Position numbers and translations under genes: made by a program
Part shown: positions 1,233 through 7,938 of the stretch, in pieces
Layout of the letters: each line of letters opens with the position of its first letter
Position numbering within the stretch: the stretch's first letter is position 1
IMG/VR virus record: IMGVR_UViG_3300045988_037140
Coordinates: 11,143 to 75,142 of that record
Strand: one strand, 5' to 3'
DNA from: a virus
DNA: 64,000 nt
Notes under the pieces: generated by a model
What the model was told of the DNA's origin: nothing
Database searches by the model: none
Seen by the model: only the letters and a program-made list of their open reading frames with translations

Positions 1233-1325
1233 AAGACACAGTACAGCAAGTTTTTTAATGGGATAATTCTTTTCTCGCCACGAAAATGATAACTGGTTCG
1301 AGTCCAGTGCAAAAACCTGTGTCTT
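1233..1325 (+). ncRNA. AAGAC-clamped tRNA-like ncRNA module A
   Basis: A 9-bp terminal clamp aagacacag/ctgtgtctt encloses a D-region (tacagcaa...), a hairpin ttttc-tcgccac-gaaaa, a T-arm actgg-ttcgagt-ccagt and an A/U acceptor-like pairing (tttttt/aaaaa). No CCA. It lies immediately after a promoter. Confidence 0.35.
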
Positions 1326-1334
1326 GCTGAATAT

Positions 1335-1425
1335 TGCCCCGTGGTGTAATGGTTAGCACGGCGGTCTCTAAAACCGTATCCCTCTGAAGGAGTAAGTCTG
1401 GGTTCGAACCCCAGCGGGGCTGCCA
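1335..1425 (+). tRNA. amber-suppressor tRNA (anticodon CUA, reads UAG), type II-like with Gln-like determinants
   Basis: Anticodon stem gcggt/accgt with a 7-nt loop ctCTAaa (U33, A37). T-arm ctggg-ttcgaac-cccag; acceptor tgccccg/cggggct with a U1-U72 mismatch; discriminator G73; CCA. The variable arm is 20 nt (ctct-gaa-ggag hairpin); D-arm gtgt-aatggtta-gcac. Confidence 0.7.
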
Positions 1426-1547
1426 GCAACACCTCCTGACATTTTTCGAGCGTTGTCGTTAACTAGAACTCGACCTCAGTGGTTTAATGTACGAGGTACT
1501 GGTAAGTGATGGTACTACCACTCTTCACTTTTCTCTATATATCTTAT

Positions 1548-1623
1548 GGGGCCTTAGCTCATCTGGGAGAGCGCCTGCCTTGCAAGCAGGAGGTGGCGGG
1601 TTCAAGTCCCGCAGGTTCCACCA
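1548..1623 (+). tRNA. tRNA-Ala (TGC)
   Basis: Acceptor ggggcct/aggttcc with the G3-U70 Ala identity pair; anticodon loop ctTGCaa; T-arm ggcgg-gttcaag-tcccgc; CCA. Confidence 0.85.
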
Positions 1624-1801
1624 AAGAGAAGTTTTTTTGGTTCTTCTCGGTTATATTAAATTAGTGATTATATTTGTTAAAAACCAGTTTAGGTTTGGTT
1701 TGATTACCCTTTTCTTTCCCCCTTATATAACGAAACGAAAACGGTAATGGTGCGTGACGCCGCGTTCCCTGAATAGCTTCGCAAGAAGAAGTGCGAGTTA
1801 T

Positions 1802-1878
1802 GGTCCCATCTACTAACTGGTCTAGGTAATCAGCCTCTCAAGCTGAAAATGTGAGTTCGAGTCTCGCTGGGATCACCA
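1802..1878 (+). tRNA. tRNA-Glu (CTC), atypical D-arm
   Basis: Acceptor ggtccca/tgggatc; anticodon stem tcagc/gctga; loop ctCTCaa; T-arm gtgag-ttcgagt-ctcgc; CCA. The D-arm is irregular. Confidence 0.5.
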
Positions 1879-1953
1879 CCTTACTTTTATCGCTTTTAGT
1901 AAGGAATCGAGACATTATTGCCCCAATAGACGGCTTTGTAGTCTATTTAATAT

Positions 1954-2028
1954 GCTCCCATGGACAAGTGGTTAAGTCCCCGCCCTTTCACGGCGGTGTC
2001 GTCAGTTCGATCCTGACTGGGAGTACCA
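1954..2028 (+). tRNA. tRNA-Glu (TTC)
   Basis: Acceptor gctccca/tgggagt; anticodon stem ccgcc/ggcgg; loop ctTTCac; T-arm gtcag-ttcgatc-ctgac; CCA. Confidence 0.75.
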
Positions 2029-2070
2029 TTAACAATAGGAAATATACATAGATGAAAAGGAGAAGATATT

Positions 2071-2307
2071 ATGAAGCAGGTTCACGGTACTTTCGATTCT
2101 TTTAAGACTCTGGGTGCGGCAATGGGCTTTAAGGCTCCTAAGGTCAAGGAGAAGGAGCATAAGTGCCCCAATTGCGGTGGCGTGATGGAGCGAGCTGGCG
2201 ACTCCAATGTTTTTGTTTGTCCTTTCAATAAGCTGGAAGAGCGTGACCTGAAGGGTAAGCCGGTGCAGGTGTTTAGCAAGTGCGGTAAGTTTGTTATCGC
2301 TGATTAA
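2071..2307 (+). CDS. small zinc-ribbon protein (CPNCGG...CPFN...C)
   Basis: 78-aa ORF with RBS aaaggagaag; Cys4 pattern; embedded in the tRNA array. Confidence 0.45.
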   Translation: MKQVHGTFDSFKTLGAAMGFKAPKVKEKEHKCPNCGGVMERAGDSNVFVCPFNKLEERDLKGKPVQVFSKCGKFVIAD

Positions 2308-2344
2308 CATATTGACCTGAGTAAGTCGGTAAACTGCTCTTTAT

Positions 2345-2420
2345 ATCGCGGTAGCTCAGTTGGTAGAGCGGCAGGTTGAAGCCCTGCGCGTCGCTGGTTC
2401 AAGCCCAGCCCGCGGTGCCA
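2345..2420 (+). tRNA. tRNA-Phe (GAA)
   Basis: Acceptor atcgcgg/ccgcggt; D-arm gctc-agttggtaga-gagc; anticodon loop ttGAAgc; T-arm gctgg-ttcaagc-ccagc; CCA. Confidence 0.85.
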
Positions 2421-2495
2421 TTGCGGTGGTGGAGCAACGGTAGCTCACTAGCCTCATAAGCTAGAGACGACGTTCGAATCGTCCGACCGCAACCA
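2421..2495 (+). tRNA. tRNA-Met/Ile2/fMet family (CAT), irregular acceptor
   Basis: D-arm gagc-aacggta-gctc; anticodon stem ctagc/gctag; loop ctCATaa; T-loop ttcgaat. The acceptor pairing needs one mismatch or an offset. Confidence 0.55.
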
Positions 2496-2517
2496 TAGGC
2501 ATAAAGCCATTATGGGT

Positions 2518-6103: not shown

Positions 6104-6150
6104 ATGTTATAATATTTTTGTTATAATATTTATAGAAAGTTAAGAAAGGA
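6104..6150 (+). promoter_or_regulatory. tandem phage consensus promoters (two TGTTATAAT boxes) + leader/RBS
   Basis: tgttataat(6106), tgttataat(6118), atttatagaaagttaagaaaggaag, then ATG at 6161. Confidence 0.5.
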
Positions 6151-6160
6151 AGTAAATGGT

Positions 6161-6346
6161 ATGAAGAAAATTGATATGGGTTGCTACTACTTTTCCGACA
6201 AGGGTTTGGTTCGTACAGTTGCCAGAGCAACAGATATGGAGACGAAGAAGTCGATGATTATGTTCGTTAACATTGAATCTGGCGGGTGTGCAAGTCAGCC
6301 TCTTTTAATTTCTGAGGAGAAGTTTGCGGCGACTTACATCAGGTAA
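6161..6346 (+). CDS. hypothetical protein
   Basis: 61-aa ORF directly behind the promoter and leader. Confidence 0.4.
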   Translation: MKKIDMGCYYFSDKGLVRTVARATDMETKKSMIMFVNIESGGCASQPLLISEEKFAATYIR

Positions 6347-6353
6347 GTCGTAT

Positions 6354-6430
6354 GCGGGATTAGCTCAGCAGGTTAGAGCATTTGCCTTACAAGCAAGGGG
6401 TCACAGGTTCGAGTCCTGTATCCCGTACCA
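6354..6430 (+). tRNA. tRNA-Val (TAC)
   Basis: Acceptor gcgggat/atcccgt; anticodon stem tttgc/gcaag; loop ctTACaa; T-arm acagg-ttcgagt-cctgt; CCA. Confidence 0.85.
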
Positions 6431-6702
6431 GCGTTGGGAGCGCTACAGTGGTCACACACAAAAACTGCCTTAGAACAAATAAACAAAAGCTAAGGTGAGG
6501 AATTTAACCGCCTAAATGAAGGGTTATGATTTAGAATAAGACGCTAGCCAGCAATTTTATTTTCTATAAAGAAAGTTTATACAGAGGATTGTGAAGAATC
6601 ATCTATGATCGCCGTTTGGCTAGTTCTCCTGGGGTAAGAGAGAGTTAATTGACAGAAGAGCGAATGTAAATTGATTAAAACTCTTTAGCGTCTTGATTAT
6701 TT

Positions 6703-6778
6703 AGCGGTGTTGCGAAGTGGTTAACGCGCATGGCTTTGACCCATGTATTCGAAGGTTCGAACCCTTCCACCGCTGCCA
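6703..6778 (+). tRNA. tRNA-Gln (TTG)
   Basis: Acceptor agcggtg/caccgct (A1-U72, G73); anticodon stem catgg/ccatg; loop ctTTGac; T-arm gaagg-ttcgaac-ccttc; CCA. Confidence 0.8.
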
Positions 6779-7016
6779 AAATCTACTAACCGGCATAAAT
6801 CAATTTAACTGGTTGATAAGCCCCGTTTGTGGGGAGAAACGCAAGCAGCTCTTAAATGAGCGACACTCTGAGTCGGCAGAGCAAGAGTAGAGAACTGGAA
6901 GGTTGCAGCTCGAATACTGAATCCTCTAAAGAGTGGGACTTAGCGCGCGGAAGAACCCTTTGGCGTGGAACGCACACCAGTAAGGTTTGTAGTCAACCTT
7001 TATCAAAACTACATTT

Positions 7017-7140
7017 CGGGAGCTAGCTCAATTGGTAGAGCGCGTGTAATAATCCAGGTCTAGTAAATAGACCACGACAGCAGCCACTATGATTTTCTAG
7101 GGACACGAGGTTGTAGGTTCAAATCCTGCGCTCCTGGCCA
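7017..7140 (+). tRNA. tRNA-like gene with a ~49-nt insertion in the anticodon loop (intron-like)
   Basis: Normal acceptor cgggagc/gctcctg, D-arm gctc-aattggta-gagc, T-arm gtagg-ttcaaat-cctgc and CCA. The anticodon stem cgtgt/acacg encloses 56 nt instead of 7. The insert contains the hairpin ggtcta-gtaaa-tagacc and ends ...ttttCTAggg. Confidence 0.45.
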
Positions 7141-7162
7141 TCTTTTCTAAAGGAGTGAATTT

Positions 7163-7588
7163 ATGTCGCAATACTTATATTTCTTTGCACGGCACGATAA
7201 AGAATTTATTCTTATCGCTGACTATTCTCGGAGCACTCAGGTATATAGCGAAGTAAATGCTCCTTATGAGAAGATTAGAAAGATTGATGAAACAGAGTTG
7301 AGAAGTGTAGCAGAGAGACTGCGGGCTGGCAAAAATTTTGCCAAATCTCAGATCGAAGCCCTTAACCGCAAGTTAGAGCTTATTTCTAGCGCGAATAATT
7401 CTCTTGAAGAGAAGTTAGACGTGATCAACTCTGAATTAGAAATCATTGAAGAGTATGAAGATGACATTCAAACTCTTGACAGATATGCCATAGAACTCGA
7501 TTTTATCGCTAATATGGCTTGTGACAACGATATTTTCGTAGGTTTCGAAATCAGTTGCCCAACCGAAAAAGATATTGTTGACTGTTAA
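7163..7588 (+). CDS. hypothetical coiled-coil protein
   Basis: 141 aa; RBS aaaggagtg. Confidence 0.4.
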   Translation: MSQYLYFFARHDKEFILIADYSRSTQVYSEVNAPYEKIRKIDETELRSVAERLRAGKNFAKSQIEALNRKLELISSANNSLEEKLDVINSELEIIEEYEDDIQTLDRYAIELDFIANMACDNDIFVGFEISCPTEKDIVDC

Positions 7589-7593
7589 CACCT

Positions 7594-7678
7594 GCCGGGG
7601 TGGCAGAACTGGTATATGCAGCGGACTTAAAATCCGCCGCCGTAAGGATTGGGGGTTCGAGTCCCCTCCCCGGCACCA
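7594..7678 (+). tRNA. tRNA-Leu (TAA), type II
   Basis: Acceptor gccgggg/ccccggc; anticodon stem gcgga/tccgc; loop ctTAAaa; long variable arm; T-arm ggggg-ttcgagt-cccct; CCA. Confidence 0.8.
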
Positions 7679-7830
7679 CCCGTGTCCGCAAGAATCAAAG
7701 ACTTAAAAAGTTGGTGGCTCTTCTTAGTAGAGTTTTTGAGGAAGAAAAGTGGCTCTAGATGACAGCGGATAAACCTCACGGGACCATTCCCTTTTGTTAA
7801 TAGGTGGTCTGGGTTAAACAATTAACATAA

Positions 7831-7938
7831 AAGACGTATACAGCAATTACACATATTGTGTATTATCGGTTCGAGTCCGATTCTATTCGCCAATAATAGG
7901 ATAGCTTAACAGGTTAAGCAACAAGAAAAATGCGTCTT
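7831..7938 (+). ncRNA. AAGAC-clamped ncRNA module D with a circularly permuted tRNA-like domain
   Basis: Clamp aagacgt/gcgtctt. Interior order: tacagcaa box; T-arm atcgg-ttcgagt-ccgat; acceptor 3' strand tctattc; G-CCA; a 6-nt loop; acceptor 5' strand ggatagc (6/7 pairs); hairpin cttaa-cagg-ttaag. The acceptor is closed by a loop and the RNA ends exit through the clamp. Confidence 0.4.

Follow-up and report, generated by a model that had tools for sequence, protein, structure and literature searches.

Which RNAs, if any, arise from the elements with complementary ends, AAGAC and GUCUU, that are scattered through a viral tRNA array, and what might they serve? The array occupies the first 15 kb of a 64,000-nucleotide stretch of the IMG/VR virus record IMGVR_UViG_3300045988_037140 (positions 11,143 to 75,142; here called the window). 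ARAGORN assigns 33 genes to it, among them a tmRNA and a suppressor tRNA(CUA). An initial annotation, made from the sequence alone, had listed five such elements, modules A, F, B, E and D, as RNAs with a terminal clamp and partly tRNA-like interiors. Our analysis confirms that the clamped elements are real and belong to a large family of small RNAs in phages, a family which is strand-specific and for which covariation was observed. At least eight of them are present in the window, namely the five modules already named, C, G and a weaker module H. They are probably Y RNA-like ligands of the phage's own Ro60-like ring protein, the product of a DUF2828/DUF7788 gene.

A terminal helix and a box at fixed distance define the modules

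Complementary ends of 8-9 bp were found on the plus strand for all five elements listed initially. The only error concerned the start of module E, which lies at 5958 and had been placed at 5948 by a 10-nt slip. The ACAGCAA box described for A, F, E and D indeed follows the 5′ strand of the helix, directly or 1 nt further on. Modules in the window are 60-157 nt long, and lengths across the family range from about 50 to 227 nt. Their interiors are tRNA-like in normal order (class I), permuted or YrlA-like (class II), or devoid of a T-arm (class III).

1233-1325, plus strand: module A, class I; 9-bp helix 1233-1241/1317-1325 (AAGACACAG/CTGTGTCTT), box ACAGCAA at 1243-1249, T-arm at about 1292-1308, conserved G at 1326
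2518-2634, plus strand: module F, class I; 8-bp helix 2518-2525/2627-2634 (AAGACGCA/TGCGTCTT), box at 2527-2533
3502-3561, plus strand: module H, tentative, class III and minimal; 6-bp helix AGACCC 3503-3508/GGGTCT 3556-3561, box at 3511-3517
5686-5791, plus strand: module B, class I; 9-bp helix 5686-5694/5783-5791 (AAGACGCTT/AGGCGTCTT) including one G-U pair, variant box GCCGCAA at 5695-5701
5958-6100, plus strand: module E, class III; 9-bp helix 5958-5966/6092-6100 (AAGACCTAT/GTGGGTCTT) including three G-U pairs, box at 5967-5973
6538-6694, plus strand: module C, class III; helix 6538-6546/6686-6694, variant box CCAGCAA at 6548-6554
7831-7938, plus strand: module D, class II (YrlA-like); 9-bp helix 7831-7839/7930-7938 (AAGACGTAT/ATGCGTCTT) including one G-U pair, box at 7840-7846
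14767-14902, plus strand: module G, class II; helix 14768-14774/14895-14901, box at 14776-14782

Module H is regarded as a tentative member, as it does not pass a 7-bp filter. The terminal helix is closed by the minimum-energy fold in seven of the eight modules and by the centroid fold in module E.

The letters AAGAC and GUCUU by themselves carry little information. The bare pattern AAGAC-N60-90-GTCTT has three matches against 2.55 expected and is not enriched. The pattern AGAC-N3-7-C[AC]GCAA has eight matches, on the plus strand of the first 15 kb, against an expectation of about 0.84 for the whole window and both strands, and a complementary 3′ partner is present for each of the eight boxes. 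The initially proposed AAGAC/GUCUU family is real, but its defining feature is the helix plus a CAGCAA box at fixed distance rather than those letters. A further AAGAC/GUCUU pair was noticed at 183-244, downstream of the first promoter, where an 8-bp clamp (AAGACTTA...TGAGTCTTG) is followed by a G and the box position reads ACCGAGA. Having no box, this pair may have degenerated from a module or have arisen by chance, and it was left out of the member count.

Eighty viral contigs carrying relatives of the DUF2828/DUF7788 protein with 55-99% identity served as comparison set (loci L001-L080). The sequence ACAGC[AT]A occurs 429 times on the gene strand of these loci and 160 times on the opposite strand, a 2.7-fold difference. 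Of the 429 gene-strand boxes, 140 are preceded at a distance of 0-2 nt by the 5′ strand of a perfect 8-bp clamp, compared with 16-23 after shuffling of the downstream sequence; on the opposite strand the number is 7 of 160, which equals the shuffle level. The related loci yielded 108 unique modules, which measure 59-227 nt and use dozens of different helices. Anchors with the short box CCGCAA, for the most part noise, do not enter these statistics.

Alignment of 157 distinct modules on the box revealed the layout 5′-(W)AAGACNN-NN-ACAGCAA ... NN-NNGUCUU-G-3′, referred to as the handle in the following. The helix occupies positions 3-9 upstream of the box, and every helix position shows all four types of Watson-Crick pair, whereas the two spacer nucleotides between helix and box are paired only half the time. 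The helix, typically the 7-bp AAGACNN/NNGUCUU with a purine-rich 5′ strand, ends abruptly and is followed by a conserved G in 114 of the 157 modules. No conserved complement to the ACAGCAA box was found in this alignment; the 3′ side of the loop is A-rich. Other phages use other helix letters (GGAC/GUCC, AGGAA/UUCCU or AGACC/GGUCU), and the box varies to CCAGCAA, GCCGCAA and TCAGCAA/TCAGCCA.

The G-U pairs in the helices, three of them in module E, argue for selection on RNA and not on DNA. Orthologues of module E in L012 and L013, 73% identical, have one U-G pair changed to C-G (AAGACCCAT/GTGGGTCTT). The consensus structure computed with RNAalifold for class II modules from gut phages and the phages Crossroads, VpaE1 and 2S-4 consists of clamp, T-arm, acceptor hairpin and D-arm, and 20 of its 23 pairs keep pairing despite changes on both sides. 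Close orthologues of the other modules are well preserved, at 98-99% identity for module B (L001, L004 and L006-L009) and 92-99% for module G (L001-L013 and L027). Conservation and covariation in related genomes, by which the initial annotation proposed to judge the clamp, are both evident: the helix is varied yet paired, the family is strand-specific and most class II pairs are compensated.

Modules accompany a Ro60-like gene in diverse phages

The gene that we propose to encode the protein partner lies close to module G.

14959-16449, plus strand: gene with Pfam domains DUF2828 and DUF7788, phrog_850 'RNA-binding protein'; predicted Ro60-like HEAT-ring plus vWA fold

The best match to the predicted fold of its product is Ro60, with a template modelling (TM) score of 0.4-0.5. 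Modules A-D lie 7-13.7 kb upstream of this gene and module G 57 nt upstream, all on the gene strand. The linkage is general among relatives. At least one module was detected in 70 of the 80 loci, and the remaining ten have less than 4.1 kb of upstream sequence; all loci with 10 kb of upstream sequence contain at least one module and usually 2-8. Of 249 modules in these loci, 227 are upstream of the DUF2828 gene on the gene strand.

A scan of viral contigs with the pattern returned at least 120 stretches. Among the 138 matches listed, 120 have two extra helix pairs (14% expected by chance). Among the at least 120 stretches, 46 with a mean length of 8.4 kb contain a DUF2828 homologue with 23-58% identity, and gene and module are on the same strand in all of the roughly 14 cases inspected by eye. 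The search of related phages that was envisaged with the initial annotation also led to cultured representatives in which the handle recurs beside DUF2828. Mycobacterium phage Crossroads carries three tandem modules downstream of the gene with helices of the type GGACNN/NNGUCC, the middle one being YrlA-like. In Listeria phages WIL-1 and CKA15, three modules follow a TTGACA promoter just upstream of the gene. E. coli phage VpaE1 has three in the tRNA array just downstream of the gene, in a region conserved in about 235 Felix O1-like genomes. Bacillus phage 2S-4 has six modules upstream of the gene, and the modules of Synechococcus phage B3 carry TCAGCAA/TCAGCCA boxes. Phage T5 served as control: its first 50 kb, with 25 tRNAs and several stable RNAs, contain neither DUF2828 nor a convincing module in the tRNA region. 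Eight annotated 'stable RNAs with unknown functions' between 28,000 and 41,600 of T5, several of them tRNA-like, are free of the CAGCAA handle; they may be a different solution to a similar problem. A megablast search of the first 9 kb of the window against GenBank phages returned tRNA fragments only and no close cultured relative.

DUF2828 was the sole gene found beside modules in every lineage examined. As the box is kept in phages with hosts from five phyla, its reader is likely to be phage-encoded. The DUF2828 family (phrog_850) is present in at least 704 GenBank phage records, and a Ro-like nature has been concluded independently for two of its members. CKA15_055 of Listeria phage CKA15 was linked to Rsr by HHpred and was found in virions (PMC12282133). 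Bas63 gp130 is structurally Ro60-like, is encoded just upstream of a tRNA array and counters the ppl defence system (PMC11482910). Y RNA partners were speculated on for both homologues and none was identified (PMC12282133, PMC11482910).

Downstream of the Ro-like gene in the window is an RNA-repair island that encodes DUF7192, a MoxR-type AAA protein, RlaP, four metallophosphoesterases, an RNA ligase, Thg1, a kinase-like P-loop protein, Band-7 and PIN-PhoH. The 5′ untranslated region of the Ro-like gene contains a hairpin (CTCCCTTGTCCAAGGGAG) at 14913-14935, past module G and ahead of the ribosome-binding site. Its loop and core (CTTGTCCAAG) are kept in most relatives among L001-L080, and covariation is seen in its stem (for example CCTCTTGTCCAAGAGG and CCTCTCGTCCGAGAGG). 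The hairpin might act as an operator in autoregulation or mark a site of processing.

Interiors range from tRNA-like domains to loosely structured RNA

Class I comprises modules A, B and F, class II D and G, and class III C, E and H. For A and B a T-arm had been claimed, and A has one; B encloses an entire cloverleaf at 5709-5782 (ARAGORN tRNA-Cys(ACA); Rfam tRNA model, 50.5 bits). Its anticodon ACA stands for the same amino acid, cysteine, as that of the canonical tRNA-Cys(GCA) of the array. The interior of module F is the AU-rich, Asn-like cloverleaf that the initial annotation had seen (2549-2622; ARAGORN tRNA-Asn GTT, Rfam tRNA 57.4 bits). A canonical, GC-rich tRNA-Asn(GUU) with the same anticodon is encoded separately at 281-356. 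The acceptor stems of F and B consist of A and U only and contain mismatches; no CCA is encoded, and the handle surrounds both cloverleaves.

The permuted arrangement proposed for module D is borne out. A V hairpin is followed by the T-arm (7865-7881), an acceptor-like hairpin with a CGCCA loop and the D-arm, and the Rfam YrlA model aligns the T-arm, acceptor hairpin and D-arm, at 24.4 bits compared with a gathering score of 69. Module G is an exact circular permutation of tRNA-Tyr(GUA), in the order anticodon arm, variable arm, T-arm, acceptor 3′ strand-ACCA-loop-acceptor 5′ strand and D-arm. Module E, as stated initially, has a clamp and no T-arm.

The position of the T-arm is bimodal among 116 unique modules. 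It lies 12-23 nt from the 3′ end in 10 of them, which corresponds to the normal order, and 56-75 nt from it in 30 permuted ones, including D and G; the other 76 have no T-arm. An extra hairpin resembling an anticodon arm follows the D-arm in the class II modules L074 2310-2432, L049 1718-1841, L032 328-453, L054 3369-3495 and L015 8563-8689. This points to a break point unlike that of module G and thus to payloads permuted at more than one position. A recombination event was noticed upstream of the gene in the close relative L008 (about 9750-9945), where an ordinary tRNA(CAA) replaces the 5′ half of module G and is joined exactly at ACCA to the 3′ half of the permuted module. It removes the 5′ strand of the handle and the box.

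The modules as candidate Y RNAs

Binding to the Ro60-like protein was one of several roles suggested initially, and it is the one best supported by our data: the family is strand-specific and covarying, it is linked to the gene in diverse phage lineages, Ro60 is the best fold match of the protein, and the topologies are those of bacterial Y RNAs. The binding itself remains putative. Each RNA would combine a constant handle, made up of terminal helix, box and 3′ G, with a variable payload. The Ro-like protein would bind helix and box much as Ro60 binds the stem and 5′-strand bases of Y RNA, a proposal that rests on co-occurrence, fixed register and cross-phylum conservation of the box. The payload would then confer specificity on the ribonucleoprotein particle (RNP), be it a normal-order tRNA mimic (A, B and F), a permuted YrlA-like mimic (D and G) or a loose AU-rich RNA (C, E and H). 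Payloads might act as a gate to the ring or as tethers for nucleases and for enzymes that handle tRNA or repair RNA. A precedent is Ro60 itself, which is tethered to PNPase by Y RNA.

The layout of the array suggests how the modules could be made. They would be co-transcribed with the tRNAs from phage promoters and released by the enzymes that process the flanking tRNAs, that is, by RNase P acting on a downstream tRNA and by tRNA 3′ processing of an upstream tRNA, with exonucleolytic trimming up to the helix. We infer this route from short distances: module A ends 9 nt before the tRNA(CUA) at 1335, module C 8 nt before the tRNA-Gln at 6703 and module D 7 nt before the tRNA-Gln at 7946, while G starts 2 nt past a tRNA-Cys and H 2 nt past a tRNA-His. 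Module H also overlaps the ribosome-binding site of an open reading frame (ORF) at 3566-3718. Together, tRNA array and RNA-repair island suggest a function in tRNA quality control or repair, or in counter-defence, during infection.

YrlA, a bacterial and mycobacteriophage Y RNA-like RNA bound by Rsr/Ro60, is among the closest known systems. Like the modules, it is encoded on the strand of a nearby ring-protein gene (here Ro60-like by fold), has a stem formed by the ends and carries a short conserved purine-rich motif on the 5′ side. The modules of class II (D, G, Crossroads 5533-5663 and VpaE1 8365-8489) also share its order of V arm, T-arm, acceptor-like stem-loop and D-arm inside the terminal stem, which is seen in this class only (30 unique modules). 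A terminal stem with a large internal loop, as in Y RNAs, whose usual length is about 80-130 nt, is formed by the 7-9 bp helix in fixed register. Yet the partner here is DUF2828/DUF7788 and not a Pfam TROVE protein, the motif (A)CAGCAA lies 2 nt inside the helix whereas GNCGAA of YrlA lies within the stem, most modules lack a tRNA-like domain, and up to eight paralogues per genome are dispersed through the tRNA array. The YrlA motif GNCGAAN0-1G, located near the 5′ end and proposed to bind Rsr, was not found in the modules, which carry ACAGCAA and its variants; the resemblance between GC-AA and GCGAA is only suggestive. Given scores far below threshold, the missing GNCGAA motif and a protein outside Pfam TROVE, the modules are not members of the Rfam YrlA family.

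Other Y RNAs provide parallels for the remaining interiors. YrlA is permuted and Deinococcus radiodurans Yrn1 has the normal order, both with a GNCGAA motif in the 5′ strand (PMC4201824). Like the class I modules A, B and F, Yrn1 presents D-like and T arms in tRNA order plus an anticodon-like arm, all of them enclosed by the Ro-binding stem, and Salmonella YrlB, a short Y RNA without tRNA-like domain, resembles the minimal class III modules (PMC4201824). The likeness to Yrn1 and YrlB, compared by description only, does not extend to sequence, motif or protein family. The Ro60 protein of Thermus phage phiLo binds two upstream Yrl RNAs with a CGAA motif (PMC12135203; PDB 9L5Y, 9KOP). In contrast to our modules, the partner there is a TROVE protein, CGAA of Yrl1/Yrl2 sits in an internal bulge, and neither a tRNA array nor tRNA-like payloads have been reported. 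Metazoan Y RNAs likewise come as several paralogues per genome and combine a conserved terminal stem, to which the ring protein binds, with a variable loop for the recruitment of other factors. They are transcribed by RNA polymerase III, have a bulged helix with GGUCCGA and lack a tRNA-like domain, so that the kinship is functional and architectural only. At threshold, Rfam detected nothing but tRNA and tmRNA in the window and in four cultured-phage loci (L082-L084 and L086). No prior description was found in Rfam 15 or in text searches that covered the older literature in part, and an earlier account is possible; the family is apparently undescribed so far.

Some observations weigh against modules and protein being partners. 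The protein resembles Ro60 at fold level only; phmmer and profile searches against the PDB gave no Ro60 match, and it does not belong to Pfam TROVE. In the window and the four cultured-phage loci, no module reached the YrlA gathering threshold (RF02553, 69 bits), the best scores being 24.4 bits for D and 21.6 bits for a Crossroads module, weak hits seen in E-value mode only. The box differs from the known Ro-binding motifs GGUCCGA and GNCGAA and is placed inside of the helix, not within it. Single modules fold with modest z-scores (-0.9 to -3.4). Bacterial and phage Y RNAs have been sought on the same strand within 4 kb of a Ro60 orthologue (Chen et al. 2014), and modules up to 13.7 kb from the gene could be associated with the tRNA array or with another conserved factor instead. 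Finally, the most highly expressed noncoding RNA of CKA15, with reportedly up to 67% of phage reads, maps to 26,236-26,727, and two other unannotated regions are highly transcribed (PMC12282133); the three modules of this phage, at 25,256-25,617, are distinct from the top noncoding RNA. That RNA (L086 1491-1982) is about 490 nt long, lies 0.6-1.1 kb upstream of the modules and has no Rfam hit at the gathering threshold. On balance, the protein may be a distinct Ro-type protein with an RNA recognition signature of its own and a putative orthologue of Ro60.

Alternative functions of the clamped RNAs

Could the clamp work without the Ro-like protein? It might serve processing or stability, with RNase III, a phage endoribonuclease or another factor recognising helix and box and excising or protecting passenger RNAs of the polycistronic tRNA-array transcript. 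Such a function would suit units that are all closed by a helix and not followed by terminators, five of which (A, C, D, G and H) lie within 2-9 nt of tRNAs, in a window that encodes PIN-PhoH. However, the box is nearly invariant although the host RNases differ between Actinobacteria, Firmicutes, Proteobacteria, Bacteroidota-type gut phages and Cyanobacteria, 7 bp make a short substrate for RNase III, no other gene than DUF2828 adjoins the modules throughout the lineages examined, and the T5 tRNA array does without the handle. We regard a clamp that works independently of the Ro-like protein as unlikely. Slightly less likely still are free-standing tRNA-mimic decoys that soak up anticodon nucleases or other tRNA-targeting defences, stabilised by the clamp, with the Ro-like protein irrelevant or a mere chaperone. 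The tRNA-like domains of A, B, F, D and G do duplicate canonical phage anticodons (Asn GUU, Tyr GUA and Cys-like), their neighbourhood is devoted to tRNA repair, and the Bas63 homologue counters a defence system (PMC11482910). But only 40 of the 116 unique modules have a T-arm, most being AU-rich RNAs that keep the handle without any tRNA-like domain, and decoys leave the invariant box at fixed register unexplained. Both roles could be compatible with that of a Y RNA.

It is very improbable that the modules are permuted or clamped tRNA precursors which are cut and re-joined via the clamp by the phage RNA ligase and end-healing enzymes to yield functional tRNAs. The exact permutation of tRNA-Tyr in module G with ACCA in its acceptor loop, and the presence of RNA ligase, kinase-like protein, phosphoesterases, Thg1 and RlaP, would fit this scheme. 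Permuted tRNA genes of Cyanidioschyzon merolae and some archaea similarly place the 3′ half, CCA, a loop and the 5′ half in one transcript. These mature via a bulge-helix-bulge motif and splicing endonuclease, whereas neither of the two is present here and nothing indicates such maturation. Moreover, canonical tRNAs with the same anticodons are already part of the array, class III modules contain no tRNA parts, and YrlA, of the same topology, is not processed into tRNA (PMC4201824). Least probable of all are DNA-level elements, either miniature inverted-repeat mobile elements or recombination sites flanked by AAGAC/GTCTT. Terminal inverted repeats, multiple copies, variable positions among related genomes and the recombination event within G of L008 are what one would expect of them, and yet the strand asymmetry effectively refutes this idea: strand bias is strict, the box is asymmetric, G-U pairs of the helix are mismatches on the other strand, compensatory changes preserve pairing of the RNA, and neither a transposase nor target-site duplications were seen. 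Terminators and riboswitches were rejected together with miniature inverted-repeat elements on grounds of strand bias, G-U pairs, the lack of U-tracts and the location of most modules upstream of tRNAs and not of ORFs.

Promoters and other features of the array

Two of the Y RNA candidates follow promoters directly.

1187-1215, plus strand: promoter that would drive module A, TTGAAA-N17-TATAAT, with extended TATAATATTTATAGAA
5639-5667, plus strand: promoter that would drive module B, TTGATT-N17-TATAAT

Modules A and B start 18-19 nt past the -10 element (18 nt in A), in agreement with their initial placement at the +1 region. The extended -10 consensus TATAATATTTATAGAA is phage-specific and usually has TTGAAA or TTGATT 17 nt upstream. 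The window has 18 matches to it, where 2.6 are expected by chance, and 17 of the 18 are on the plus strand (for instance 81-96, 1210-1225, 5662-5677, 6122-6137 and 29333-29348). Module E shares its 3′ end with the -35 element of a promoter at 6099-6127 (GTCTTGAAA). No terminators were found after the modules of the window.

Several observations concern the tRNAs themselves. The suppressor tRNA(CUA) at 1335-1425 is Ser-like with a long variable arm and a G discriminator, and in-frame TAG codons occur in the ORFs 4783-5423 and about 10000-10220 (cgtTAGact in an ORF with NAGPA domain, gtaTAGctt at 5421). TAG appears to be recoded in the source phage. A tRNA-like gene at 7017-7137 with an insertion of about 47 nt was not called by ARAGORN and scores 46.5 bits with the Rfam tRNA model in E-value mode only; it may be an intron-containing or otherwise interrupted tRNA. 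At 8450-8523, ARAGORN reports a tRNA with a four-base anticodon (taaa; Rfam tRNA 42.5 bits), which might act in frameshifting, be a suppressor related to TAA/ochre or be unusual in some other way. GC-richer noncoding stretches of 100-300 nt lie between tRNAs at 990-1190, 2836-3138, 3215-3345, 6431-6537, 6779-7016, 7679-7830, 8194-8369 and 14190-14483. None of them matches an Rfam family, and further structured RNAs may be located there.

Implications for Ro-type particles in phages

Ro60-Y RNA particles are conserved from bacteria to humans, and their roles are unclear outside a few systems. The family described here accounts for many 'pseudo-tRNA' calls and annotations of tiny ORFs in phage tRNA arrays. 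A broader and more tentative reading, which we consider possible but rather doubtful, is that the handle is a universal loading handle by which phages of at least five bacterial phyla mount interchangeable payloads on a divergent Ro60-like ring, from tRNA mimics of either topology with several break points to unstructured RNAs, to form a programmable RNP for counter-defence or tRNA repair. If so, it would represent a separate and previously unrecognised branch of Ro/Y RNPs with its own recognition code. The particle might be carried in the virion, given that the Listeria phage homologue is present in purified particles, and it might underlie the anti-ppl activity of the Bas63 homologue.

With the modules, concrete Y RNA candidates become available whose simple signature of sequence and structure can be mutated and searched for. 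Carriers of DUF2828 include tractable models such as Felix O1-like coliphages, P100/A511-like Listeria phages and cluster L mycobacteriophages. Experiments could thus directly address the code of recognition used by a new Ro-type RNP, as well as its function, in particles linked to tRNA repair and anti-defence.

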